Shown: positions 10,157 through 64,000 of the stretch, piece by piece
Numbering within the stretch: the stretch's first letter is position 1
Layout of the letters: each line of letters opens with the position of its first letter
Virus record (IMG/VR): IMGVR_UViG_3300012919_000005
Coordinates: 11,529 to 75,528 of that record
DNA from: a virus
DNA: 64,000 nucleotides
Strand: one strand, 5' to 3'
The notes under the pieces: generated by a model
Seen by the model: only the letters and a program-made list of their open reading frames with translations
What the model was told of the DNA's origin: nothing
The model's database searches: none
Translations under genes and position numbers: made by a program

Positions 10157-10384
10157 TTATCTTTTAAATCTTGGTTTTGGTGGGTTTTTAGTTTTACCGA
10201 ATCTAGGTCCGATTGCTTTTGGTGCTGCTGCATACCTAAAAGCTGTAAATCCGTTATGAAGTTTAGTATTAACTGGAACTCCAGCAGCTGCATTCATATC
10301 TCTCGTAACGCCTCTTTTGAGTACATGTTTACGAATTTTTTGAGTACCGTGCGTGCCTGTTGGTCCGCTTAGAAACTTTGCCAT
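10157..10384 (-). CDS. Small basic protein
   Basis: 75 aa, Lys/Arg-rich, AGGAG RBS. Confidence 0.6.
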   Translation of the reverse strand: MAKFLSGPTGTHGTQKIRKHVLKRGVTRDMNAAAGVPVNTKLHNGFTAFRYAAAPKAIGPRFGKTKNPPKPRFKR

Positions 10385-10418
10385 TGCATTCTCCTTTTAG
10401 CTTAGCGTTATAATACGC

Positions 10419-10541
10419 CTATTTAGTTTTTACTGCTTTTTGTTTAGCTGCTATCATTTTATCAGTGATATCAACTGTACCGTCAAAGTTTTTATCTTTG
10501 AGAGTAATTATATTCCAAAGCATTTTTAAATATTTTATCAT
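10419..10541 (-). CDS. 40-aa microprotein with an EF-hand-like DKNFDGTVD motif
   Basis: Manual translation MIKYLKMLWNIITLKDKNFDGTVDITDKMIAAKQKAVKTK; ATGA overlap with the upstream stop. Confidence 0.5.
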   Translation of the reverse strand: MIKYLKMLWNIITLKDKNFDGTVDITDKMIAAKQKAVKTK

Positions 10542-10837
10542 CTTTTTTTCCTTCTAGTTGTTGTTCTTTTCTTTCTGCGTCTACCTGCAAAGGTTTTAAC
10601 ATTAGTAGGTTTTCCACCTACTCCTTGCTTCTTTGCCCTCTTTCGTCTAACTGCTGATTTAATTTGTGCCTTACTCATTCTAGCTGCCTTTGATGCAGGA
10701 ACGCACTTAGGATACCCTCCTTTTCCTGCCTTTCTTCTTCCACATGGAGCGTATCCACCACCTTTCTTTGGTCTAGAAATGTCTACCCACTTCTCACCAA
10801 ACCATTTGGTTAATCCTCCACTTCTTCTTACAGCCAT
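10538..10837 (-). CDS. Small highly basic protein (LTKWFGEKWVD...CGR...YPKCVP type seen in aquatic viruses)
   Basis: 99 aa; TAATG coupling to the upstream ORF. Confidence 0.65.
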   Translation of the reverse strand: MAVRRSGGLTKWFGEKWVDISRPKKGGGYAPCGRRKAGKGGYPKCVPASKAARMSKAQIKSAVRRKRAKKQGVGGKPTNVKTFAGRRRKKRTTTRRKKR

Positions 10838-11010
10838 TACTTACCAACCTTTCGCATAGCTAATTTATGGGCTTGACCAAAAGTTTTTCCTTCTTTCATA
10901 GCTCTCACCATAACTGTCATATGCTTTTTGGTATGGTGAGACCTATGTCTGCGGAGTGTAGCAATTTGTCTCTTAGTTAGTTTTTTAAGTTTTTTCTTTT
11001 TTCTAGCCAC
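10837..11010 (-). CDS. Small basic His/Lys-rich protein
   Basis: Manual translation from GTG: MARKKKKLKKLTKRQIATLRRHRSHHTKKHMTVMVRAMKEGKTFGQAHKLAMRKVGK; coupled stops and starts. Confidence 0.6.
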   Translation of the reverse strand: MARKKKKLKKLTKRQIATLRRHRSHHTKKHMTVMVRAMKEGKTFGQAHKLAMRKVGK

Positions 11011-11185
11011 GACGATATCTTCCCCCTTTTTTCTTTTACTCTCTTACAAGCCACGCATTTGCATATGCACTTGGATATACCGCAAACTTTCTTTTTGCTG
11101 CTGCTTTAACTCTAGCATACAACTTTGAGTTTGTAGGTATGTTACGCTTTTTAGTACTCTTTCTTCTTTTTCTTTTAACGGCCAT
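11003..11185 (-). pseudogene. Small basic protein (...YPSAYANAWLVRE*KKKGGRY...) interrupted by an in-frame TAA
   Basis: TAA at 11036-11038 where a Tyr is expected from my recollection of the SAYA...YKKRGG motif; the frame continues to TAG at 11003. Confidence 0.5.
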
Positions 11186-11331
11186 TACTTACCTCGTTGC
11201 TTTTTTAAGATTGCTCTTTGCAAAGCCATAGGTAGTTTCTTTTGTTTAGCGGTCAAACCTTTCTTTTTCTTCATTCCGCCTTTTTTCTTCTTACCGTTCT
11301 TCTTTTTCTTTTTACCTGTGTGATATGGCAT
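11185..11331 (-). CDS. 48-aa poly-Lys microprotein
   Basis: Manual translation MPYHTGKKKKKNGKKKKGGMKKKKGLTAKQKKLPMALQRAILKKQRGK; TAATG overlaps at both ends. Confidence 0.6.
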   Translation of the reverse strand: MPYHTGKKKKKNGKKKKGGMKKKKGLTAKQKKLPMALQRAILKKQRGK

Positions 11332-11540
11332 TATATACTCCATTGTCCTAAAGGACACTCTGCCCGTTTGATTCTAGTTTTGATGGGCATAAAACATTTA
11401 CAAACTTTACAAATATTTAATGTGAAGTTTGGACACTTCTTGCAAACAGCAAGTCTGTCCTTATAATTTTGTAACGAATTCTTTTGCGTCTTTGTTTGTG
11501 AGGAATACTCCAAGTCTGTTACCGTTAAGATCTTTAACAT
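11331..11540 (-). CDS. Small Cys-rich metal-binding protein (start uncertain)
   Basis: RLAVCKKCP...CKVCKCFMPIK...CPLGQW pattern. Confidence 0.6.
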   Translation of the reverse strand: MLKILTVTDLEYSSQTKTQKNSLQNYKDRLAVCKKCPNFTLNICKVCKCFMPIKTRIKRAECPLGQWSI

Positions 11541-11895: not shown

Positions 11896-11924
11896 ATTAT
11901 ACTAAAAGTGGCAACAAATGTCAA
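11896..11924 (-). promoter_or_regulatory. Sigma70-type promoter
   Basis: TTGACA-17-TATAAT. Confidence 0.8.
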
Positions 11925-11927
11925 GTA

Positions 11928-13709
11928 CTATTTTCGTATGGTATAGATTTCAACGGGCTCATTCTTTCCTTTAACCTTTACTTGGTCTAAAAACTCGTAA
12001 TCGTAATCATCGAGTAAACTGTGTTCGGAAATTATTAAGTCAGTATCGTACTCTTTACAACTTGATTCTAAACGCGCAGCAAGGTTGACAGAATCCCCAA
12101 GAACGCTATAGTCGAAGCGAGTGCTAGAACCAAAGTTTCCGACCACGCAGAGTCCTGTATTGATTCCCGCTCCTGTATTAATTTGATCCAAGCCTTCTTC
12201 TCTGAGTCTTTCATTTAACTCTCCTAATGATTCTCGCATTTCGAGAACCGCCTTGGTTGCATTCTCCACTTGATTTTCATCGTCAAGTGGTGCACCCCAA
12301 AATGCCATTATACAATCTCCCATATACTTGTCAATTGTACCGCCATGTTTTAATATAATCTCTGTTTGATTGTCTAAAAATCTATTTATTAACTCAGTTA
12401 ATCCTTGTGGATCTTTTTGATATTTTTCCGATATTGGTGTAAATCCTCGAATATCAGAAAATAAAAATGTTAGTCGTTTTGTCTCCCCACCCAATCTCAG
12501 CAATGTTGGGTCTTTTTGTAATTTTTTAACCAAGGCAGGACTAACGTATGTCCCAAATTGTCGTTTTATTTCCATTTTCTCGAAGTAGGTCTTTATAAAA
12601 TTCCTGAAACTTTCAATACTCCAGAATAAAATCGATATTAAAATAATGCCTGAAACGTCAAATAAGTAAGAAGATTGAAAGGCATACCAGGCTCCATATG
12701 CTGAACCTCCTACAACTAGCACTAAAGCGGGCAAGCTTAAATAAATTCTACTAGCTGTTAGTAATAAAACGAGCAAAGCTAAGACTGCAGCTCCTAGCTC
12801 CGCTCCTGCACTCCAATTTGGAATTGAAGGCGCTGTGCCTGATACTAAATTATGCAATACATTTGCTTGTACCTCATGCGGGTATTTAGCTCCAGATGCA
12901 GTAGGAACTGGATTTACCACTCCTTCTGCTGTTACTCCAAATATAACAAAAGGTGCAGGAATTGGATCAGCCATATATTGTGCTGCAGTTTGTCTATAAA
13001 ACTTTACATTCGTATTTATCCAAATAAACCCATTAGCATCGGTATTCATATTTGGATAGTTAGGAACTCGAATCCACTCTACACCTGTATCTCCAGTTTT
13101 AATTTGATAGCTTGGGTCGCCTACAGCGAGTCTAAGCATTTCTAGTGCAAAACTTGGGTATATTTTTCCCTCACTTCCTACGACTACGGGCAGTCGCCTG
13201 ACGACGCCGTCTAGCTCTGGTGAGGAGTTTACGATACCTTTGCCGTCTGCGCTTACCGATAAGATTGGTAATTGTCGTAAAATTCCTGGATATGTTAATA
13301 GCCATTCTAATGGATCACCTCCTAATTGAGCAGTACCTACATGAGGGCCTAGCTCAGATGCTTGTGTTGATGCTGCGTAAGCTAACACTGTGGGTTTATT
13401 GGCTAATGCACTTGCTAAGTACAAGTCATTTTCGTTGCCACGTAAATCTGGGTCAGGCATAAGAATAGTAAAGCCCCCTATTCCAGGAGTCCTTTCTATC
13501 ATTTGTCCATATAGTTTTCTTGGAAGTGGATAACCTCCGTATGCTTCGACGATGTTTTCATCGATGTCGACAATTAGAATATTGTCATTTTGAATTTCTG
13601 GTTGACTATTCATAATATAGTCGAATGTTTTTAGTTCTAGAATTTGTAGAGGGTACGGATTCCAGATAAAGAATCCGAGTACCACTCCAAAAGTAATTAA
13701 TCTTACCAT
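11928..13709 (-). CDS. CHASE2-domain class III adenylate cyclase
   Basis: CHASE2 motifs (IVDIDE, DGVVRRLP, PSFALE), three TM helices, cyclase domain FSDIRGFT / DKYMGD / FDYSVLGDSVNLAARLE with the ATP-specifying Lys and Asp. Confidence 0.92.
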   Translation of the reverse strand: MVRLITFGVVLGFFIWNPYPLQILELKTFDYIMNSQPEIQNDNILIVDIDENIVEAYGGYPLPRKLYGQMIERTPGIGGFTILMPDPDLRGNENDLYLASALANKPTVLAYAASTQASELGPHVGTAQLGGDPLEWLLTYPGILRQLPILSVSADGKGIVNSSPELDGVVRRLPVVVGSEGKIYPSFALEMLRLAVGDPSYQIKTGDTGVEWIRVPNYPNMNTDANGFIWINTNVKFYRQTAAQYMADPIPAPFVIFGVTAEGVVNPVPTASGAKYPHEVQANVLHNLVSGTAPSIPNWSAGAELGAAVLALLVLLLTASRIYLSLPALVLVVGGSAYGAWYAFQSSYLFDVSGIILISILFWSIESFRNFIKTYFEKMEIKRQFGTYVSPALVKKLQKDPTLLRLGGETKRLTFLFSDIRGFTPISEKYQKDPQGLTELINRFLDNQTEIILKHGGTIDKYMGDCIMAFWGAPLDDENQVENATKAVLEMRESLGELNERLREEGLDQINTGAGINTGLCVVGNFGSSTRFDYSVLGDSVNLAARLESSCKEYDTDLIISEHSLLDDYDYEFLDQVKVKGKNEPVEIYTIRK

Positions 13710-13993
13710 TTAACTTTGTTTGCCCAATAAGCTGCAGACATTTTTCCTTTGGCTATGTTTCTTCTATGTCTTGCTTTGAATGAAGCTCTTTTCTTCTTCA
13801 TTCTCATTGATTCACCTTTCTTTGGTTTACCAGCAGTTTTTGCTCCCTGCTGTCCAAATCGTATTGTCTTTATTTTGTTGCCTACTTTAGCAACTACAAT
13901 ATGAGACTTCTTAGGGTGTCCAGGTGTTCTTTTTGGTTTATTAAAACCTCTAACGCCTGCTCTTTTTAGTCTTGGATCTTTTTTTCTTGGCAT
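13703..13993 (-). CDS. Small highly basic protein (IRFGQQG...RASFKARH...SAAYWANKVKW type)
   Basis: 96 aa, extremely Lys/Arg-rich; motif familiar from marine phages. Confidence 0.7.
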   Translation of the reverse strand: MPRKKDPRLKRAGVRGFNKPKRTPGHPKKSHIVVAKVGNKIKTIRFGQQGAKTAGKPKKGESMRMKKKRASFKARHRRNIAKGKMSAAYWANKVKW

Positions 13994-14273
13994 TGTTTGC
14001 TCTCCTTAAACTTGCCTTACCAGATTTAAATACTGATGCGACAGTTTTCTTGCCCATAACTTTTGCTCGTTGTTCTCCTACAGTTAGTATTTGAATTTTT
14101 CTAGCATAAGACTTACGGACTCTTTTTACTTTTCGTACTGTTGCTCTTGCATCTTTTACAGTTGCAAATTTAATTCTAACGGTATCTTTTGGATTCTCGT
14201 CAGTATAGAGTCTTCTTCCAGACCCCTTAGGTTTTTTACCTGTTCCTTTTTTTGGATCTCTTTTCTTACTCAT
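13950..14273 (-). CDS. Small highly basic protein (GSGRRLYTDENPKDTV type)
   Basis: 107 aa, Lys/Arg-rich. Confidence 0.65.
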   Translation of the reverse strand: MSKKRDPKKGTGKKPKGSGRRLYTDENPKDTVRIKFATVKDARATVRKVKRVRKSYARKIQILTVGEQRAKVMGKKTVASVFKSGKASLRRANNAKKKRSKTKKSRR

Positions 14274-14697
14274 TGTCTATTATTACCCAAGTATTATTTA
14301 TAACTACTAACGCACCAAGTGTGTTAAAATTTTCTATTGTTTCAATGTCTTCAAAAACATTCATTGTATATAGTAAATAATTAACTGCTAATTTTTGAGC
14401 TATCAATCTTTCTAAAGAAGGATAGTCTGGTAGTAAAGGATTTAGCTCTTTTCCGTACCTTCCACGTATTGCTCTATTTGTAGTGTATACATCAAGTACA
14501 TTCCAAGCAACCCATTCATGAATATGTGAGTTATCTGACATTTTAAAATGCATTGTTTGATTTTGATTGTATTGTTCTATGAGTAAAGCATCTGCTTTAA
14601 TTTGTTCATAGTCCCAAGGTATATCAACCTCCAGATTGGCGGATTGTAATGACTGAGCCAGACCCAGAGTTAAGAATAATGTTATAAGCTTTTCCAT
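14266..14697 (-). CDS. Exported or membrane hypothetical protein
   Basis: N-terminal signal peptide; overlaps the FecR gene. Confidence 0.55.
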   Translation of the reverse strand: MEKLITLFLTLGLAQSLQSANLEVDIPWDYEQIKADALLIEQYNQNQTMHFKMSDNSHIHEWVAWNVLDVYTTNRAIRGRYGKELNPLLPDYPSLERLIAQKLAVNYLLYTMNVFEDIETIENFNTLGALVVINNTWVIIDNE

Positions 14698-15742
14698 CTT
14701 GTTCTATTATTATATTATAACTTGTAGTGCCATTTAAATCAAGTCTCACATTTTGATTAACTTGTCTTAAAATGCTTACTACTTCCCCATCTGTAAATGT
14801 GGTAATTTGGGTTGTGGGGTCATTCCCAAATTGTGTACCTTGTAAATCTATAGGCGAAAAGCCATCTTGGGCTAACTCGTCCTCAGAGGATAGAGCATCT
14901 AGTTCTTCAATAACATCTAATAAATCCTCTAAAAAGTTTACGTCTAAGTATTCGATATCTAGTTCTGTGAATTCTAATTCATCTGTAGCTAAATAATCTG
15001 TTTCTAACTCGTCGTAATCGAGGAAATCGATATCAAGAATATTGTTATCAGAGTCGTCAGTTCGAGCTTCTCCTGCAGTTTGTCCTTCTTCATCTTTCTT
15101 TGGTGGGCTCACTATGAGCATATTATCTATGAGGTCTAGTGTCAGATCCAGTATTACTGGTCTAGTAGGAATTGCTTCCCATACACTCGTAACAGTAGAC
15201 TCATATGGTTTGTTTAAAATTACAGAACCCAAAGCAGTTGTTACGACAATCTCCCCTGAGCTTATACCAAATTCGTCTGGTAAAAGAATAACCAAACTTC
15301 TTCCTAATTCATCAACGGTAACAGTAAAATCTGTCCCACGAATTGCTATCTGAGAAGTTGGTGTTGATAGATTAATGTTTTGTTTATTAATACTACCTAT
15401 CTTTCCAGTTATAAAACGAGCAGTCCCACTGGCAAACTTAAGTGCCATTTCTGACTTGTTTGGGTCGGGATTAAAAACAACCTTATCAATAATAAGTTTG
15501 CTATGCTCTGTTAGTCTGACTTTGCTATCATCTAAAAACGATATTGCTAATCGGCCATTACCTGTGCGAACATCGTCCATTTGCTGTATGTCAAAGCCAA
15601 CCTCAGCGGTATAGGTGTCATCTCGTAAGACAGCACCTATTCCACGAAGTTCTGTGATATCACCTATATTGTCAGCATGAAGTGGAGGTGCCACCATCAT
15701 TTTGAACAATACAAATATTTGAATTAGATGTATCAGCTTCAA
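14624..15742 (-). CDS. FecR-domain periplasmic protein with an acidic tail
   Basis: DDVRTGNGRLAISFLDDSKVRLTEHSKLII and TPTSQIAIRGTDF FecR motifs; signal peptide. Confidence 0.85.
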   Translation of the reverse strand: MKLIHLIQIFVLFKMMVAPPLHADNIGDITELRGIGAVLRDDTYTAEVGFDIQQMDDVRTGNGRLAISFLDDSKVRLTEHSKLIIDKVVFNPDPNKSEMALKFASGTARFITGKIGSINKQNINLSTPTSQIAIRGTDFTVTVDELGRSLVILLPDEFGISSGEIVVTTALGSVILNKPYESTVTSVWEAIPTRPVILDLTLDLIDNMLIVSPPKKDEEGQTAGEARTDDSDNNILDIDFLDYDELETDYLATDELEFTELDIEYLDVNFLEDLLDVIEELDALSSEDELAQDGFSPIDLQGTQFGNDPTTQITTFTDGEVVSILRQVNQNVRLDLNGTTSYNIIIEQDGKAYNIILNSGSGSVITIRQSGG

Positions 15743-16388
15743 TTTTCAACCAGTCTGCTGCAAGTGTAGAAGATTGAGTAATAGTCATTGTATTACTATC
15801 TCCGTCTAAATCTAAATAGAAATAAGCGGCATCGCTACTGCTTGCTCCGTATCCACTGCCTGTGAATGTAAGTGTATTAGAGTCTCCTAAAATGTCCATG
15901 TAATTTGTGGCGTATGCAGAATCTAAGTCTAGAGTGATTTCATTACTGTCACCAGTAAATAACCAGTCTAAGTCTAAATACGATACGTCATCATCTTGGC
16001 CTAAGTCGATATCTGCTGTGTTTGAAGAACCAGTAATGTCAAAATTTAAATTAACATAGTCTGCTCCGTTTAAACCATCAGTATCCATACTTATAGTCCA
16101 TTCGTTAGAGTCACCAATAAAATCAAATGTTCCAGTGAAGTTATCACCTATTATTCCGTCAGTAAGAAATAAGTTGGAGGCTCCTATTTGATTTAAATCT
16201 AATGTCCAAGAGGTGCCATTTAATATTGCTGCTGTCATTGAACCTGTTGTTGCATTTAATCCACCAATTAAATTGCTGGAACCAAGTTGTTCAATATCTA
16301 TTGCTGCATTGTCACCTGTTTGGTCGATATAGATTTCATTGTCTGCATAGAGACCGATTGATAAAAATAAGGCAAATAAAGCTCTCAT
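15672..16388 (-). CDS. Curlin-like (CsgA/CsgB-like) repeat protein
   Basis: Signal peptide; repeated x-Q/I/T-x-G-D/S-S-N beta-arc units (IDQTGDN, EQLGSSN, NQIGASN, FIGDSN, ITGSSN, FTGDSN, ILGDSN, LDGDSN); directly after csgG. Confidence 0.7.
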   Translation of the reverse strand: MRALFALFLSIGLYADNEIYIDQTGDNAAIDIEQLGSSNLIGGLNATTGSMTAAILNGTSWTLDLNQIGASNLFLTDGIIGDNFTGTFDFIGDSNEWTISMDTDGLNGADYVNLNFDITGSSNTADIDLGQDDDVSYLDLDWLFTGDSNEITLDLDSAYATNYMDILGDSNTLTFTGSGYGASSSDAAYFYLDLDGDSNTMTITQSSTLAADWLKIEADTSNSNICIVQNDGGTSTSC

Positions 16389-16389
16389 T

Positions 16390-17241
16390 TTACTCTCCCA
16401 TGTAGTACTTCCAGTACCCTTTCTCTATTCCTTGTTTAATTAACGCTACTACTCCTGTTTCTACTGCTGCTTGCACAGCGATATACTTAGGTTCATTCAT
16501 TGTGTTTCCACTTTCAAATTCAACGAGTTCAGTATCATTTGAATGAAATCTAAAATAGTCATTACTTAAACCTACGGATAGAATTGCTTTTGAAGTAAGG
16601 ATCTCCAATAAGATTTCTCCTGTACTCACAGAAACTAATCTCATAGAAACGATTACCTTATCTTCACGATATTGTTTAGAAGTGCCAATGCCTAAGTTTC
16701 TAGCACCTACACCTCCAGTTAATAAGTTAGTATTGTAATCAACAATACCACCTTCGATAATAAGACCAGCAAACAGTAAAGGTTGCTGCTCTTTATCGTC
16801 TTCAAAACTTTGTCTTGTTTGTCTAATTAATTGTCTTTCTTTTGTTAAGTGGTCTAACCCTTTTCTTTCTACCACTTTGAAGAAGCCGGATTGTTTTAAT
16901 GCACGAATTAAATATGCTTCTGGTGCTTGTGTGACTGCACTTGAGAAGTCTGCTATACCGTCCCTTGATTTTCTTTGACCAGTTAAGTCTTCAAACTTAT
17001 ATACTGCAACAACAGGAACTCGTGCCGGTAATGGCACAGTAGTTATTGCTTTTGTTATCGGTTGCTCAATAATAGAATCACCAGAGAAACATTTTGCTTC
17101 TCCAACAATTGTGACTAAGTCTTTGTAATCCCCTTGAGGATTAGTTAGACAGGGTGATGCGTATTTCCAGTGCGTTGCGCAACTAGAAACCAAAATCGCC
17201 GATAGGGATAGTAATAGTAGTTGTTTCACCTGTAGCTTCAT
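16390..17241 (-). CDS. csgG: Curli secretion channel lipoprotein CsgG
   Basis: Lipobox LVSSC; VAVYKFEDLTGQRK, FSSAVTQ, VVERKGLDHLTKERQLIR, LLFAGLIIEGGIVDY, RLVSVSTGEIL. Confidence 0.92.
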   Translation of the reverse strand: MKLQVKQLLLLSLSAILVSSCATHWKYASPCLTNPQGDYKDLVTIVGEAKCFSGDSIIEQPITKAITTVPLPARVPVVAVYKFEDLTGQRKSRDGIADFSSAVTQAPEAYLIRALKQSGFFKVVERKGLDHLTKERQLIRQTRQSFEDDKEQQPLLFAGLIIEGGIVDYNTNLLTGGVGARNLGIGTSKQYREDKVIVSMRLVSVSTGEILLEILTSKAILSVGLSNDYFRFHSNDTELVEFESGNTMNEPKYIAVQAAVETGVVALIKQGIEKGYWKYYMGE

Positions 17242-17668
17242 TAAATATAGTTAGGGTGATTGATATACCATCTGATGTCCAAGTAATTAGATTATCAAAT
17301 AATGTAAATGACCCTTCCGTTGCAGGATTCTCTCCAAATAGCTGGTCTACCAACTGTCTAGAAAGCTGTGCATAAATTCTACTCTCAAAGTTCTTTAAAA
17401 ATCTAGCAAGAGTAGTATTATCTTCTTCTCTTTGCAAAGCTTCTTGCATTGCTTTTATTTCTAGTCTTAGTGCCTCTTTTCTTGAGAACTCTTGATTCTC
17501 AATGGTTAAGTAGTGACTTGATGTACCTATGCCACTAAAAGAGGGTGACTTGAATTCATGTTTAATTTCATCTGCAGAAAGTTCTGCTACAAATAAAACG
17601 CTAAGTAGTACAAAAATTGTGCCTAGTACAGCATTAGATACTCTATTGTTTATTTTTCTTTCGTTCAT
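17183..17668 (-). CDS. csgF: Curli assembly protein CsgF
   Basis: Signal peptide then EIKHEFKSPSFSG; ESRIYAQLS and TGETTTITIP motifs; upstream of csgG. Confidence 0.8.
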   Translation of the reverse strand: MNERKINNRVSNAVLGTIFVLLSVLFVAELSADEIKHEFKSPSFSGIGTSSHYLTIENQEFSRKEALRLEIKAMQEALQREEDNTTLARFLKNFESRIYAQLSRQLVDQLFGENPATEGSFTLFDNLITWTSDGISITLTIFNEATGETTTITIPIGDFGF

Positions 17669-17897
17669 TTTCTTTTAACTGTAAAACTGTGTCCAGTTTC
17701 TTTTGCAGTCGAATCATATCATTATCTAACATTCTTATCTGGTCAATTAACTGTAAGATTGTCATCTTCATGTCTTCGATTGCAGGGTCTATCTTTTCGG
17801 TTACTGTAGTCCAAACAAAGTATACGAAATATCCTAATCCAACCATTGCAACAACTGGAAAACCAAATTGTTGAATAGCATCAATCACGTCTTGCAT
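17643..17897 (-). CDS. Small membrane protein (one TM + coiled coil)
   Basis: FGFPVVAMVGLGYFVYFVW...RMLDNDMIRL; similar to the adjacent ORF. Confidence 0.7.
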   Translation of the reverse strand: MQDVIDAIQQFGFPVVAMVGLGYFVYFVWTTVTEKIDPAIEDMKMTILQLIDQIRMLDNDMIRLQKKLDTVLQLKENERKKNKQ

Positions 17898-18174
17898 CTA
17901 TACTTCCTGATTCTACAAAATTTTCTGCTCTTGCTATTTTATCTAAGTCTGGTGTGAGTCCAAGAGCTGAACTTACACTCATGTCTATCTTAATCATATC
18001 ATTGTTCATTGTTTTAATACGAGTAATTAGCATTTTTGAAATACCTTGTACTTCACAAGTATCGCCTACTACATCGTCCATAATTTTTCTTATGATTAAA
18101 AAGATGAAGCCTCCCATAAACAGTGCTGCTGCTATTGGTGCTCCTACTTGTCCTATTATATCAAATACTTCCAT
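17881..18174 (-). CDS. Small membrane protein (one TM + coiled coil)
   Basis: VGAPIAAALFMGGFIFLII...KTMNNDMIKI; similar to the adjacent ORF. Confidence 0.7.
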   Translation of the reverse strand: MEVFDIIGQVGAPIAAALFMGGFIFLIIRKIMDDVVGDTCEVQGISKMLITRIKTMNNDMIKIDMSVSSALGLTPDLDKIARAENFVESGSIDARRD

Positions 18175-18539
18175 TATACCTCTATTGCGAATATTTTATC
18201 TTTATCTACCTTTTCTAAATCAAAATTTATTGAAACTCCACAACCACAAGAAGACTGCTCTTTTGGGTTGATAAACTTAAATACTTCATTTAGTCCTTCT
18301 ACTTGAAAGTCTAATGTCATTCCTACTAAGTATGGAACTGATATTTTATCTATTAGTATCCTAAAGAGTCCATAATCCAATTCCACGTCTTCTTCAGTAG
18401 CTGCATTATTAGTCCGATCAAATACATACTCAAAACCAGCACACCCCCCACCAGTAATACCCAAGCGGATACCAGTAAACTTCTCTCTTTCCTGTTTCTC
18501 CAAAATCTTGGTGATTGCTTCATCTGTAATCTCTATCAT
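18174..18539 (-). CDS. iscA: Fe-S cluster A-type carrier (IscA/HesB family)
   Basis: GGGCAGFEY and NP...CGCGVS motifs. Confidence 0.9.
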   Translation of the reverse strand: MIEITDEAITKILEKQEREKFTGIRLGITGGGCAGFEYVFDRTNNAATEEDVELDYGLFRILIDKISVPYLVGMTLDFQVEGLNEVFKFINPKEQSSCGCGVSINFDLEKVDKDKIFAIEV

Positions 18540-18786: not shown

Positions 18787-19200
18787 TCATTTATTATCTT
18801 TGTCATGTTGCTTCTGCTCCCAGTTTTCAATTGCTTTTTTAATCGAATCTTCAGCTAAAACAGAACAGTGTAATTTTATTGGAGGCAATTGTAATGCCTC
18901 GGCTATGTCTTTATCTTTTATTAATTTGGCTTCTTCTATGCTAAGGCCTTTCAGCATTTCAACAAACATAGTAGAGGAAGCAATTGCGCTTCCACAACCA
19001 TAGGTCTTAAACTTGATATCTGTAATAATATCGTTTTCATCTAGTTTAAGTTGTAACTTCATGACATCACCACATGCGGGTGCTCCTGTCATTCCTGTTG
19101 CTACATTTGGGTCTTTTGGATCAAACCGACCGACGCTAAACTGCTGCGGACTGTTCAAGACTCCGTAAAATCTTTCTGTGACTTCTTTACTATAGGCCAT
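18787..19200 (-). CDS. iscU: Fe-S cluster scaffold IscU
   Basis: GAPACGDVMKLQ, FKTYGCGSAIASS, LPPIKLHCSVLAED. Confidence 0.95.
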   Translation of the reverse strand: MAYSKEVTERFYGVLNSPQQFSVGRFDPKDPNVATGMTGAPACGDVMKLQLKLDENDIITDIKFKTYGCGSAIASSTMFVEMLKGLSIEEAKLIKDKDIAEALQLPPIKLHCSVLAEDSIKKAIENWEQKQHDKDNK

Positions 19201-19675: not shown

Positions 19676-19704
19676 ATTATACTAAAAATATAACCATTTG
19701 TCAA
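19676..19704 (-). promoter_or_regulatory. Sigma70-type promoter (near-leaderless terS transcript)
   Basis: TTGACA-17-TATAAT; ATG is 8 nt after the -10 box. Confidence 0.8.
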
Positions 19705-59593: not shown

Positions 59594-62500
59594 TTATTTC
59601 TCCTTCTTTTCTAGATCGTTAATTCGATCGGTTAGTTTATTAATTGTTTCTTGTTGTTCTTTTATTGCCTCTACAAGTAGTCCTACCATATTACCATAAG
59701 CTACTGTTTTAATATCAGTATCTTTATCATGTAGAACAACTTCAGGTAAGACTTTTTCTACTTCTTGTGCTATTACTCCAGTATGTTTTCTTTCATCTTC
59801 TAAATCATTTCTAGTAAAAGTTACTCCTCTTATTTGTTTTACTTTTTCTATTGGATTTTCGATTACTTTTATGTTGTCTTTCAACTTTTCATCTGAGAAA
59901 GCCACTACATCTCCAGTAACAGTTAGATTACTACTAGTATCTAGTGTCATTCTTATAGTACCGTTACCACTTCCACTTGTAAATTGTAAATTACCTGCCG
60001 CATTTGTTTGGTTATTTGGTGATTCATATATCTGCCACAGACTACCACCATTCCACTTAATACCTTCTTGAACTCCAGGGTCATTAAAAGATAAATCATT
60101 TAGATTAGTAATAGAAAAGTTTTGCATATTAATACTAGCAGTTGCAGTTGTTCTTGCAAAAGATGAAGCATGTAGTCCATCAAGTAAATCTGCATCTAAT
60201 CCTGAACCTGCTCCGTCATTAGCTGCGTGCCACATTAAGTTTCCACTAGCATATAGTAAGGTTTTATTAAAATAGAAATTACTTCTATCAGTATAAATAT
60301 GAGCATGACTTGTGTTTGCTGGGCCAATCTGTATATATCCATGAGCTGTCTGATTTTTTATCCAATCTCCAGTTGTTCTGTTACCGTAGTTACTTGGATA
60401 GTAAGTCCAGTCATTAAAATATACTTGGTTTCCAGAATATGGATAAGAAAATACTTCATACCTAGTTCCAGCATTAATTCTGTAGAATGTAACATAATCA
60501 TTTGTTTCGCCTGATGCGAATGCTGGAGAGCCGTCTCCATTGTATGACATTCCTCCACCATGACTTCCATTGTCTTGTGAAACTTCAAATGCTCCAGTAC
60601 CTTGTCCATCTCCTCCAGCTCTTACTATGGCTTCACCAGCATTATCACATTTAACATTTAATAAAGTATTTGTTCCAGAATCTAAAACTAGATTTCCAGT
60701 CATTGTTCCACCAGCAAGTGGTAGTTTATTTGTTATGGCACCGTTTGATGCTGTAATGTAACCAGCTCCATTTGTTAGCTGATTATTATTTGTTGGTATT
60801 GTTGGTGTGTTTGCTATAGTATTATAATTAATATGTGGACTAATTGAAACTCCAAAGTTTGCAGGAGTTTGGTATCTTATATAGCCATCTTGTGAACAAT
60901 AAATTCTTTGCAAAGTGCTTGAAGTTGCTCCAGATGTAGTATTAATCCACCCTAACATTGTATACCCATTGTTTTGAGTTCTTATTATTTGATTCGCAGT
61001 GTTCTGAGTACCTTGAGTATTATGTAGCTCTAAACCATCAAGCGTATCGGCATCTAATCCTGAACCTGATCCGTCGTTACCTGCATTCCAAACTACATTT
61101 GTACCAACATAATGTTGACCAGTAGAACTTATAACACCATTACTTCCACCAAGAAAAACTCTTGCGTCGCCATCGGCAGCAACATACATTCCCCAACCAG
61201 AAACTCCTGTACCCCCATAAAAAGATGCATCAGAGTGACTGTAGCCAATACCATACATATTACTTAATGCAGACTCGCCTGGATTGTAACTTGAACCAAT
61301 TGTATAAATTGGATTTGATTTAGTACTATTTCCACCTACATTATTGTATGAACCTTCTAAATGACCTGAGTTATGGTTCGATCTCATTAAGACATATCCA
61401 GATTCTAGTTGAATATCTCTTGTGCTAAACTTACCTGCTCCATTAATACTCCAGCCTGTACCATCAAGGACATTGGCTCGGAAGTGTATATTGTCTCCAC
61501 TACTGTCACCTATATATTGATTAGTTGCATAGTTATAGTAGTTAGTTACAGAGTTTTGTATGTAAAAATCGCCATTTGCAAAGGCAGTTCTACCATTTGT
61601 GTCACTAAAGAAGTAACCATCGTTACTACCTGCTCCTATATATAAGTTGCCTTCTACTGCTAGATTGTTAGTAAAAGTTTCTGCAATATCAGTTCTCGCA
61701 AGATTAGCTAATTGAACACCATCAACTGTATCAGCATCTAAGCCACTGCCTGCACCATCATTGCCTGCATGCCAGACAAGATTTGATGTACCTTGATAAA
61801 TTCCTGTACTATTAATTTTTGCCCAGTTACTTGTTCCACCATCACCAAAATTAATTGGTCCGTTTGCTGCTGGAGATAATTCTATTCTTGCTTGAGCACT
61901 TCGTAATGTAAGTCCCCAGTAAAAAGCAATCTGAGCTTTGTTATATCCTGAACCATTATATCCTGGTACATTTGTTCGACCTATACCATACCAAGGTGAA
62001 TCGTTATAGGCGTCTGTAAATGAGGTTGTTCCGTTAGCGATTAGTAACTTGTTATTGTAGAGGTATTGTAAATTTAGGTAATTTGCCGCTGACTGGGCAC
62101 CATTATCTTGTGCATCACTTCTTAAGAATGAGGAACCTTGTACACCGTCAAGAAGATCGGCGTCTAGTCCTGAACCAGAGCCGTCATTACCACTATCCCA
62201 GACTTTTCTCCAACCAGAGTATTCGTCATTATTCCAACCATTTTGTATAAATAAACTTCCAGTATGGGGTGCATACATTTTAAATGTAGAATTATCTAAT
62301 TGCCAAGATAGTACCCCACCATACCCATATGCGCCTGTAGGATAGTTAGAGTGACTACCGCCAGTTATATTTTGTACTTCATATACACCCATGTGTCCAT
62401 CAGTCTGACTGAAAATAGTATCCCAGTTTCCAGAAACTACACCTTTATAATGCATTAGGAAATCTTTGTGTTTACCGTCAACAGTATCAGCGTCTAAACC

Positions 62501-64000
62501 TGAGCCAGAACCGTCATTTGCTGAGTGCCAAATTAGTCCAGCTTCATCGCCTTTATATAAGTTCCCATTAGATTTACATTTTAATAACCAAGCAGCACTA
62601 TTATTTAATATACCTATATCATTATCAGATTCTGCATAAAAATACCCCATTACAGTATTAGAATTGTTTGACATTGCTAGTCTAGAGGTAGTTGAATTTC
62701 CACTTCTATGAAACCACCCATTTGTACCATTTGCATACCAATGAGGTCCGTAAGTAGAAGAATAAAGTCCTGCGCTTCCAACATCTATCCAGTTTTGCAT
62801 GTACAGGTAACCGTTTGAATGTGTTCTTAATATTTGATTAGAACCTGCTGAACCAGTTGCACTTTTAGGTTGCATACCGTCTAGGGTGTCAGCGTCTAAT
62901 CCAGAACCTGCACCGTCATTACCTGCGTCCCAAACAGTATTACTATTTCGCGTTAAAGTACCAGAACCACTTGTTGCAACATTTACACCACCATAAACAG
63001 ATAATCCACCAGAAGGAGCTGCCGTACTACTATGTCCCCAACCAGCCGGACTTCCAATATGAACTCTTTCATACATCTGTATAAAATCACCAGTCTGTGA
63101 TCCGAGGGCTGCACCTCTGATACCAGTAAGTTCGACACTTTCCGCGGCTGTAAAAGTAATTTTACCACTCGCAGTATCATTTGCATTACTTCTTAAGAAT
63201 TGTCCTTCAAATGCTCCAATAGTAGTTGAGTCTAACGAAGCTACATTTGCAAGTTGTCTTGCATTGGTAAAAACAGTTGTTCCGTCTATTTGTAGTGATT
63301 CAAGCACATTAAAAGCTCTGTCATGAGTTGTAATATATGCTTTTGTTATACTACCATAAAATCCTGTTAGCTGTATGCCTCCAATTGTAATACTATTCGA
63401 TGCATGTGACCATGTAGGCACAATACGAATTCTAAAATTATTTCTATAAGATGAGCCTACACCAAAAGAAACTTTTGTTACAGTTTCTCCCGGCCAACTA
63501 CCAACACCTGATATAGTTGTTTCAGTTGTATAACCACTCTCATACCCATTTGTTATTGATTCTTTTGTTTCTAGATAAATTGCCATAGTATTACCATTTG
63601 TACTATGTTGCATTCTAAATTTTCCTGGGAAAGAATATCCTAAGTTTGCTCCAAAGTCAATTACAAATTCTTGATAACTTTGAGATAGTGTAAGACCTCC
63701 ATACTGATGAGCATAATTTCCATCTAATACTCCGTCGCAGTTTCCTAAATTTGTCCAGGAACTACCATTGTATCCCCAAAGTGTTGCGTCTTTATATCTA
63801 AGAAAATCACCAATTGGTCCGTTATTAGAATGATCTGCGTCTCCCCAGCCTTGTAAAAAGTAAGAGCCTTGTAAGTTTGAGCCACTAGTATGACTATCTA
63901 TTATATCACTCGCACCACTTCTTAAGAATGCTGTAGAGTTTAATCCATCAAGTGTATCAGCATCTAACCCACTACCAGAACCATCATTACCTGCATGCCA
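59594..64000 (-). CDS. Long tail fibre with a C-terminal peptidase S74 intramolecular chaperone (5' end outside the window)
   Basis: Frame appears open to 64000 (WHAGNDGSGSGLDADTLDG in frame at the edge); repeated GSGLDAD junctions; FSDEKLKDNI...GVIAQEVEKVLPE...VEAIKEQQ. Confidence 0.88.
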   Translation of the reverse strand, partial: WHAGNDGSGSGLDADTLDGLNSTAFLRSGASDIIDSHTSGSNLQGSYFLQGWGDADHSNNGPIGDFLRYKDATLWGYNGSSWTNLGNCDGVLDGNYAHQYGGLTLSQSYQEFVIDFGANLGYSFPGKFRMQHSTNGNTMAIYLETKESITNGYESGYTTETTISGVGSWPGETVTKVSFGVGSSYRNNFRIRIVPTWSHASNSITIGGIQLTGFYGSITKAYITTHDRAFNVLESLQIDGTTVFTNARQLANVASLDSTTIGAFEGQFLRSNANDTASGKITFTAAESVELTGIRGAALGSQTGDFIQMYERVHIGSPAGWGHSSTAAPSGGLSVYGGVNVATSGSGTLTRNSNTVWDAGNDGAGSGLDADTLDGMQPKSATGSAGSNQILRTHSNGYLYMQNWIDVGSAGLYSSTYGPHWYANGTNGWFHRSGNSTTSRLAMSNNSNTVMGYFYAESDNDIGILNNSAAWLLKCKSNGNLYKGDEAGLIWHSANDGSGSGLDADTVDGKHKDFLMHYKGVVSGNWDTIFSQTDGHMGVYEVQNITGGSHSNYPTGAYGYGGVLSWQLDNSTFKMYAPHTGSLFIQNGWNNDEYSGWRKVWDSGNDGSGSGLDADLLDGVQGSSFLRSDAQDNGAQSAANYLNLQYLYNNKLLIANGTTSFTDAYNDSPWYGIGRTNVPGYNGSGYNKAQIAFYWGLTLRSAQARIELSPAANGPINFGDGGTSNWAKINSTGIYQGTSNLVWHAGNDGAGSGLDADTVDGVQLANLARTDIAETFTNNLAVEGNLYIGAGSNDGYFFSDTNGRTAFANGDFYIQNSVTNYYNYATNQYIGDSSGDNIHFRANVLDGTGWSINGAGKFSTRDIQLESGYVLMRSNHNSGHLEGSYNNVGGNSTKSNPIYTIGSSYNPGESALSNMYGIGYSHSDASFYGGTGVSGWGMYVAADGDARVFLGGSNGVISSTGQHYVGTNVVWNAGNDGSGSGLDADTLDGLELHNTQGTQNTANQIIRTQNNGYTMLGWINTTSGATSSTLQRIYCSQDGYIRYQTPANFGVSISPHINYNTIANTPTIPTNNNQLTNGAGYITASNGAITNKLPLAGGTMTGNLVLDSGTNTLLNVKCDNAGEAIVRAGGDGQGTGAFEVSQDNGSHGGGMSYNGDGSPAFASGETNDYVTFYRINAGTRYEVFSYPYSGNQVYFNDWTYYPSNYGNRTTGDWIKNQTAHGYIQIGPANTSHAHIYTDRSNFYFNKTLLYASGNLMWHAANDGAGSGLDADLLDGLHASSFARTTATASINMQNFSITNLNDLSFNDPGVQEGIKWNGGSLWQIYESPNNQTNAAGNLQFTSGSGNGTIRMTLDTSSNLTVTGDVVAFSDEKLKDNIKVIENPIEKVKQIRGVTFTRNDLEDERKHTGVIAQEVEKVLPEVVLHDKDTDIKTVAYGNMVGLLVEAIKEQQETINKLTDRINDLEKKEK

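Follow-up and report, generated by a model that had tools for sequence, protein, structure and literature searches.

Gene content of the module and its phage backbone

The window analyzed here is a stretch of 64,000 nucleotides (nt) covering positions 11,529 to 75,528 of the IMG/VR virus record IMGVR_UViG_3300012919_000005, a viral contig of 75.5 kb with a CheckV completeness estimate of 77%. Positions 11928-18174 of the window carried, on the minus strand, ten open reading frames (ORFs), most of them abutting or overlapping, which formed a module of curli secretion, FecR and adenylate cyclase genes: two small membrane proteins, CsgF, CsgG, a curlin-repeat protein, a FecR-domain protein, an exported protein of 143 amino acids (aa; exp143), two basic ORFs and a CHASE2-domain adenylate cyclase. 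This overlapping minus-strand run had been described in a first-pass annotation made from the sequence alone, and all ten ORFs were recovered. With Pfam matches judged against the curated cut-off of each family, hidden Markov model (HMM) searches placed CsgG, CsgF, Curlin_rpt (marginally), FecR, CHASE2 and Guanylate_cyc above cut-off, and the gene identities of the annotation held; its inclusion of the two basic ORFs as parts of the module did not, as these were inserts usually found elsewhere in relatives.

The window encoded hallmarks of T5 phages, namely a split NAD-dependent ligase, SbcCD, a D10-type helicase, primase, DnaB, a family A polymerase and ribonucleotide reductase, as well as structural and packaging genes (TerL, portal, protease-capsid fusion, siphovirus major tail protein). 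These genes, together with a family A polymerase identity of 44-45% to Proteus and Vibrio Demerecviridae, bore out the T5-like origin proposed in the first-pass annotation. As the polymerase identity was this low, the source phage is, judged from its sequence, a distant, uncultured, marine T5-like siphovirus outside any named genus. No tRNA was found in the window, and megablast with the module region returned no DNA match among deposited phages.

Curli components

CsgG, the outer-membrane lipoprotein that forms the curli secretion channel, was encoded at 16390..17241 (minus strand, as for all features below). It matched PF03783 with 161.4 bits (cut-off 20.8) and the Escherichia coli CsgG structures with an E value of 4e-44 over residues 64-278 (215 residues), and its signal peptide, as read from the sequence, ended in a lipobox-like VSSC. 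At the channel constriction, R93, D98 and F99 of the phage protein aligned to Y51, N55 and F56 of E. coli CsgG. CsgF, an extracellular or pore-associated curli assembly factor (17183..17668), carried a signal peptide and matched PF10614 with 64.9 bits (cut-off 25.8), covering profile positions 4-132 of 132, as well as phrog_35372 (E 2e-37); it had no sequence match in PDB.

The third component was a secreted CsgA/B-like protein of 238 aa (15672..16388), recognized from Curlin_rpt, its repeat units and an AlphaFold2 (AF2) model. Its alignment displayed conserved G-x-x-N units every ~22-28 residues, with Q at conserved positions, amounting to ~8-9 repeat units. NCBIfam matches to CsgB (E 0.009) and CsgA (E 0.04) were weak and both equivalog models scored far below their cut-offs, so it was assigned as a curlin-repeat protein and not as an orthologue of CsgA or CsgB. 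The AF2 model, with a predicted local distance difference test (pLDDT) of 82 and a predicted template modelling score (pTM) of 0.79, was all beta and formed a full-length beta-solenoid. VIA structure comparison gave Z scores of 16 to the SufB/D beta-helix and 10-13 to adhesins, while Foldseek returned no significant match (CsgA fibril 8ENQ at E 0.4). The modelled fold is consistent with curlin without being specific to it. The protein is a predicted secreted curlin-repeat subunit, for which we infer export and amyloid formation. One curlin gene was present in the genome of the window, and two in many T5-like relatives.

The first-pass annotation had reported no recognizable CsgE. A six-frame HMM search with PF10627, which recovered the E. 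coli CsgE used as control, likewise found nothing in the source contig, in two other T5-like contigs, or in the genomes of Pelagibacter phage HTVC008M and the Methylophilales phage Melnitz.

CHASE2 adenylate cyclase

The last gene of the module (11928..13709) encoded a CHASE2-domain class III adenylate cyclase. From the sequence, its layout was read as one transmembrane (TM) segment at the N-terminus, then the CHASE2 domain on the periplasmic side, three TM segments, and the catalytic domain in the cytoplasm. CHASE2 (PF05226) scored 105.1 bits over residues 10-316 (cut-off 26.3) and Guanylate_cyc 74.1 bits (cut-off 21.9); the protein matched phrog_35576 with 548 bits, and its cyclase domain matched Pseudomonas aeruginosa CyaB (3R5G) with an E value of 3.9e-40.

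Class III cyclase sites comprise two metal-binding Asp, a substrate-specifying Lys with Ser, Thr or Asp, and a transition-state Asn and Arg. D419, K461, D465, S535, N542 and R546 of the phage protein were invariant in all 69 T5-like homologues examined, and position 535 was S or T in bacterial relatives. All six catalytic and substrate residues are intact, in agreement with the first-pass annotation, and synthesis of cyclic AMP (cAMP) is predicted from them. Neither the source contig nor two further T5-like contigs nor the complete genomes of HTVC008M and Melnitz yielded a cyclic nucleotide-binding domain, so any cAMP produced would act through host proteins.

FecR-domain protein

Between the curlin gene and the cyclase, a secreted FecR-domain protein of 372 aa was encoded at 14624..15742, from a TTG start and with a 71-nt overlap with the curlin gene. 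Its signal peptide was followed by a FecR-type beta domain (~25-200), a disordered, acidic linker (207-296) and, at the C-terminus, a small beta domain (300-370). PF04773 scored 45.6 bits (cut-off 24), and the AF2 model (pLDDT 68.6) was confident for the N-terminal beta domain. This domain superimposed on the cell-surface-signalling domain of PupR (6OVK_R) with a Z score of 16.1 and a root-mean-square deviation of 2.5 over 138 aligned residues, and on 4M0N, a Parabacteroides anti-sigma factor (BDI_1681), with a Z score of 14.8. In the 6OVK_R structure, the PupR domain is bound to an outer-membrane transducer through the periplasmic signalling domain of the latter.

No anti-sigma domain, TM segment or other Pfam domain was found in the phage protein. 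With a signal peptide followed by a FecR domain and neither of those regulator parts, it was considered a FecR-domain protein and not a FecR regulator. The C-terminal region had no Pfam match and gave weak Ig-like structural matches only (Z ~3). Two candidates for it were rejected. Curlin-like repeats, which could have allowed docking on the fibre, were aligned by hhalign with a P of 0.007 over 22 columns, no better than the FecR N-terminal control (0.011); and the "cell surface anchoring domain" 5IX9 aligned to residues 23-120, that is, to the FecR-domain region.

Distribution and arrangement across phage lineages

An IMG/VR scan with the cyclase returned at least 599 matching stretches. The best 80 loci, which were inspected, shared 46-84% identity with the window cyclase and all lay on the same backbone, with TerL (76-88% identity), portal and the protease-capsid fusion downstream and p155, NifU and IscA upstream. 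Wherever a contig was long enough, the gene order was kept: two TM proteins, CsgF, CsgG, curlin, FecR, a spacer and the cyclase. The spacer took several forms, consisting of a second curlin gene of 220-300 aa with or without exp143, of exp143 alone as in the window, or of nothing, with a 4-nt overlap of FecR and the start of the cyclase, as in 10 of the 53 loci mapped. Basic ORFs occupied it in very few loci. In four of the loci with overlapping FecR and cyclase genes (L016, L025, L027 and L071), the second curlin gene was still present but had moved upstream, to a place between CsgF and the small membrane proteins.

A scan seeded with TerL, which is independent of the module, was restricted to the 38 loci with enough upstream sequence, and 26 of these carried the cyclase. 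In at least seven relatives, NifU adjoined basic ORFs and TerL and every module gene was missing; the module therefore behaves as an all-or-none accessory cassette in the T5-like lineage. Its site there lay between iron-sulphur (Fe-S) assembly genes and the terminase. An IscA-like gene (18174-18539; phrog_17776) and a NifU/IscU-like gene (18787-19200; phrog_8429) stood directly upstream, apparently in one operon with the module. Both were kept in T5-like relatives, including those without the curli genes, and their linkage to the module is thus positional.

Beyond this lineage, tblastn of the cyclase and CsgG against deposited phages retrieved HTVC008M and the Melnitz phages, whose annotated neighbourhoods were syntenic: two small ORFs, CsgF, CsgG, curlin, FecR, a second curlin-repeat protein and the cyclase. 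A scan seeded with CsgG of HTVC008M yielded myovirus loci and a non-myovirus group on contigs of 14-43 kb, both with the gene order of the window. The non-myovirus group probably represents HTVC023P-type podoviruses, with flanking ribonucleotide reductase, primase and epimerase genes that fit this assignment but do not prove it. The conservation of cyclase and FecR with csgF and csgG, which the first-pass annotation had named as a refutation test, therefore held in viruses, where three backbones carried the module and it was whole or absent, but not in bacteria (see below).

Csg genes of this kind have been reported before. Zaragoza-Solas et al. 2020 (PMC7029224) found csgF and csgG in pelagimyophages, and Buchholz et al. 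2022 (PMC9004378) discussed the curli genes of Melnitz. Wittmers et al. 2022 (PMC9599517) described the full set, including FecR, the cyclase and the small proteins, labelled "histidine kinase", in HTVC023P-type podoviruses and in myoviruses; they remarked on the missing CsgE, documented a global distribution along with expression, and suggested roles in aggregation ("sibling capture"), superinfection defence and import. The first-pass annotation was correct in recalling csgF and csgG from pelagiphage myoviruses but understated what was known, the whole set with FecR and cyclase having been published in 2022. Its wider impression of novelty did not stand, since the module and the main functional hypotheses were published between 2020 and 2022, and no new category is opened here. 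Its narrower claim, that no T5-like phage had been reported to carry the module, agrees with the literature searched: none of the three papers mentions a T5-like or siphovirus carrier, and a full-text search found no other paper combining curli, phage, FecR and cyclase.

Ancestry of the cyclase and its bacterial relatives

In the cyclase tree, viral proteins were monophyletic with respect to the 25 nearest bacterial homologues sampled, with a support of 100 in the Shimodaira-Hasegawa-like approximate likelihood ratio test (SH-aLRT). They split into two deep sister clades, one in which myovirus and non-myovirus sequences were intermixed (support 100) and one made of T5-like sequences only (support 98). 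The T5-like clade was internally at least as diverse as the other. The T5-like module is thus an old branch in its own right, derived from one viral invention rather than acquired recently.

The 80 closest bacterial CHASE2 cyclases, mostly from Alphaproteobacteria with a few from SAR86 and Elusimicrobia, were 31-39% identical to the phage protein. A FecR-domain gene occurred within 9 kb in about 30 of these 80 loci, often directly upstream and on the same strand, whereas no CsgG, CsgF or curlin gene was found near any of the 80. A LysM-FecR/CHASE2 operon with histidine kinases in Burkholderia (PMC5192318) provides a further pairing, and the remark in the first-pass annotation that CHASE2 cyclases often neighbour FecR proteins in bacteria was confirmed on both counts. 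FecR and CHASE2 thus form a bacterial sensor pair and their union with curli genes is virus-specific, as was likewise concluded by Wittmers et al. (PMC9599517). In seven loci of Bradyrhizobium and its relatives (L088, L091, L096, L100, L106, L114 and L118), the FecR ORFs upstream of the cyclase were very large, with ~1,300-2,000 aa, and may encode secreted multi-domain proteins.

Co-variation within the T5-like lineage

Pairwise-identity matrices of 27-28 genomes with complete modules separated three blocks: the small membrane proteins, CsgF-CsgG-curlin-FecR, and the cyclase. The two small membrane proteins co-varied with r 0.80, and the four genes of the second block with r 0.84-0.96, with breakpoints at both borders of this block. 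At the level of sequence identity, FecR is therefore tied evolutionarily to the secretion unit. Adjacency alone does not explain the four-gene block, since the second small membrane protein physically overlaps CsgF and correlated with it at r 0.31 only. The cyclase followed the four-gene cassette with r 0.33-0.44, while its CHASE2, TM and catalytic parts followed TerL with r 0.55-0.61. The fastest-evolving parts were curlin and the FecR C-terminal region, with mean identities of 40% and 35%, compared with 79% for the catalytic domain and 81% for TerL.

Small proteins, neighbouring features and promoter-like sites

Two paralogous single-pass membrane proteins opened the module. The first (97 aa; 17881..18174; phrog_18771, E 5e-23), which is the "HK" of Wittmers et al. 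2022, was 45-47% identical to the genes at the same position in HTVC008M and Melnitz, overlapped the IscA stop by 1 nt with its start, and had no Pfam or NCBIfam match. The second (84 aa; 17643..17897) matched the same family with an E value of 4e-27. The histidine kinase label was not supported, as no kinase domain was found in these proteins with Pfam, NCBIfam or the ESM Atlas. Their nearest family-bearing Atlas clusters were YvrJ (0.88) and Holin_BhlA (0.85), scores which lie below the 0.9 reliability line and are leads only.

The exported protein exp143 (14266..14697), with a signal-peptide-like N-terminus, was a variable accessory part of the FecR-cyclase spacer, and about half of the T5-like loci had a homologue in that position. 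It matched viral hypothetical clusters only in the Atlas and no informative Pfam or NCBIfam family, apart from a weak DUF5658 match (E 0.024). The basic ORF of 107 aa (13950..14273), without a Pfam or phrog match, lay between FecR and the cyclase in one of the 53 mapped loci and elsewhere in others. The basic ORF of 96 aa (13703..13993) matched phrog_7595 (E 2.7e-41), and its homologue lay between the cyclase and TerL in most relatives. Because their usual location is elsewhere, both were considered inserts and not core parts of the module. They were members of a family of small, extremely basic (K/R-rich) ORFs, 49-107 aa long (10157-11358 and 13703-14273), several with a common C-terminal aromatic motif, which was scattered between the cyclase and TerL with two copies inserted inside the module; the phrog_7595 member weakly resembled a "minor head protein and DNA pilot" family. 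The differing positions of the basic ORFs among relatives suggest mobility or duplication.

A perfect sigma-70 promoter-like site (12/12, TTGACA-17-TATAAT) was located upstream of p155, at 19676..19704. The next perfect sites (TTGACA-N16/17-TATAAT) lay inside the coding sequence of the cyclase catalytic domain (12307-12334) and immediately behind the stop codon of that gene, before the small ORFs on the way to TerL (11896-11924). The total of promoter-like sites was not above that of shuffled sequences, so that the perfect sites count as consensus matches only. The site upstream of p155 probably drives the predicted run p155-NifU-IscA-module, and this placement suggests that the module is co-transcribed with the Fe-S genes.

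Farther away in the window, a tail-fibre protein of 1,339 aa (59594-63613) had a C-terminal region matching many families of T4-type long-tail-fibre distal subunits, an unusual company for a T5-like backbone.

Functional interpretation

Of the auxiliary modules found in ocean viruses, phage curli genes rank with the more puzzling; the hosts lack curli. The locus is probably an auxiliary envelope module of the pelagiphage type, as known from podoviruses and myoviruses of SAR11 and OM43, which now extends, as an all-or-none cassette, to a third lineage, the marine T5-like siphoviruses. The occurrence of this seven-part module as a deep and diverse cassette in a third abundant lineage makes a stronger case for selection acting on the whole set, FecR and cyclase included.

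In the mechanism that we propose, the infecting phage would supply its host, probably curli-free, with an outer-membrane CsgG-CsgF channel, through which the beta-solenoid curlin subunit would be exported to the cell surface. The FecR-domain protein has the fold that, in FecR/PupR, grips the periplasmic domain of an outer-membrane partner, and may serve as a periplasmic adaptor of the secretion unit, possibly as a substitute for the missing CsgE. It would also be the inherited partner of CHASE2, with the inner-membrane cyclase making cAMP according to the state of the envelope or of the secretion apparatus, and this cAMP would be read by host proteins. Such a trans-envelope circuit is plausible as a model, in which we infer fibre formation, the contacts of FecR, the sensed signal and the effect of cAMP. 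It is favoured by the descent of FecR-CHASE2 from a bacterial pair, by the 4-nt gene overlaps and by the inheritance of the module as all or none.

Carried to its full extent, the circuit would be a sensor in which a surface curlin fibre and the CsgG-CsgF pore signal through the FecR adaptor to CHASE2, the resulting cAMP retuning host physiology, and which has been kept and exchanged by three unrelated lineages of phages of oligotrophic-ocean bacteria. This extended proposal is tentative and, taken as a whole, unlikely. If true, surface events such as contact with cells or particles, a superinfecting phage or jamming of secretion would be turned into a cAMP signal during infection.

Several observations weigh against the circuit. 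The Curlin_rpt score was marginal (22.1 bits, cut-off 20.7), and the fold match of the curlin model was that of a generic beta-solenoid, and CsgA itself did not rank among the leading matches. In Melnitz-infected cells, Buchholz et al. (PMC9004378) observed no clumping. The CHASE2 domain tracked FecR type (r 0.44-0.47) no better than it tracked TerL (r 0.57), hence no specific co-adaptation of FecR and CHASE2 was visible. Co-variation within the four-gene cassette could itself derive from recombination-block structure instead of physical contacts. The cyclase is missing from many podovirus versions (PMC9599517), which implies that the curli part can work without it; together with the weak FecR-CHASE2 tracking, this frequent loss favours a looser coupling. 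On the favourable side, three studies provided marine and aquatic RNA libraries with near-identical contigs that matched parts of the module, several of them covering the curlin-CsgG junction and CsgG without any difference, but they document presence in RNA libraries and not proven transcription, carried-over DNA being possible; their depth cannot rank genes, and uncovered parts carry no meaning.

The loosest coupling would be none at all, with two functions travelling together: a surface-fibre or secretion unit made of CsgF, CsgG, curlin and FecR, and an independent host-takeover cyclase that floods the cell with cAMP without any coupling to FecR. The separate variation of the cyclase, which tracked the backbone more closely than the cassette, and its loss in podoviruses fit such an arrangement, as does the position of the most variable part of the module, the spacer, precisely between FecR and the cyclase. 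Independent functions would, however, leave aside that bacteria show an ancestral adjacency of FecR and CHASE2 (about 30 of 80 loci; PMC5192318), that the two genes overlap by 4 nt in ten mapped loci, that the T5-like lineage gains or loses the module whole, and that the order is the same on three backbones. We regard this alternative as possible but doubtful.

A role in the timing of lysis, proposed by Buchholz et al. 2022 and argued for Melnitz from structure modelling and synteny (PMC9004378), appears improbable. CsgG-CsgF would then act as a pinholin analogue or a gated pore of the outer membrane, next to holin-like small membrane proteins, in line with the CsgE gate not being found, with Melnitz cultures that did not clump, and with the YvrJ and BhlA leads. 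These leads, however, fall under the reliability line, and the small membrane proteins have recombined separately from CsgF and CsgG. CsgG in the outer membrane cannot by itself depolarize the inner membrane, as follows from textbook curli biology, and the conserved secreted curlin, FecR and cyclase are left unexplained.

Least probable, to the point of being very improbable, is an uptake channel, an option raised by Wittmers et al. and Zaragoza-Solas et al. in which an ungated CsgG pore admits small solutes, for instance iron chelates or vitamins, to the periplasm and FecR senses them: the lack of a detectable CsgE, the ferric-citrate signalling from which the FecR family takes its name and the apparent operon with NifU and IscA in the T5-like lineage point that way, but the FecR-domain protein is devoid of the anti-sigma and TM parts of a true FecR, its fold is a protein-protein module and is not known as an iron-binding site, curlin and CsgF are left unexplained, and the Fe-S genes persist in module-less relatives.

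For the auxiliary envelope module that we favour, the analysis provides three experimental handles: the four-gene exchange cassette of CsgF, CsgG, curlin and FecR, the FecR-CHASE2 pair of bacterial ancestry, and an intact cyclase without a phage-encoded receptor.

Comparison with known systems

The phage module shares with enterobacterial curli (csgBAC-csgDEFG) the CsgG channel, CsgF and a secreted curlin-repeat protein with a beta-solenoid model. Enterobacterial curli include CsgE, CsgC and CsgD, all three of which are lacking in the phage module, whereas the phage curli genes are joined to FecR and a cyclase, an association found in none of the bacterial loci examined.

With the FecR/PupR anti-sigma regulators, the phage protein shares the fold of the periplasmic domain. 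The regulators possess a cytoplasmic anti-sigma domain and a TM helix and work with a TonB-dependent transducer and an extracytoplasmic function (ECF) sigma factor; the phage protein lacks the former two and the module the latter two. The acidic linker and the extra C-terminal beta domain are, conversely, additions of the phage protein. Bacterial FecR and CHASE2 pairs provide a closer parallel, with a secreted FecR-domain protein directly upstream of a CHASE2 membrane sensor, as in the phage. Their FecR partners are often far larger (1,300-2,000 aa, compared with 372 aa) or LysM-bearing, and their output is sometimes a kinase, whereas the output domain of the phage protein is a cyclase.

The closest system is the pelagiphage region that combines the type VIII secretion system with FecR and the cyclase. 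The window matches its order (two small membrane proteins, CsgF, CsgG, curlin, FecR, an optional second curlin, cyclase), every component of the T5-like module is homologous to its HTVC008M and Melnitz counterparts at 31-50% identity, and both are without CsgE and CsgD. The window differs in that it has one curlin gene, that exp143 stands where the second would be, and that two basic ORFs are inserted. The insertion sites also differ, between NifU/IscA and TerL in the window and after ssb in the published pelagiphage versions. While the module itself has been known since 2022 from T4-like and HTVC023P-type carriers, the T5-like siphovirus backbone that carries it here appears to be a new carrier lineage.

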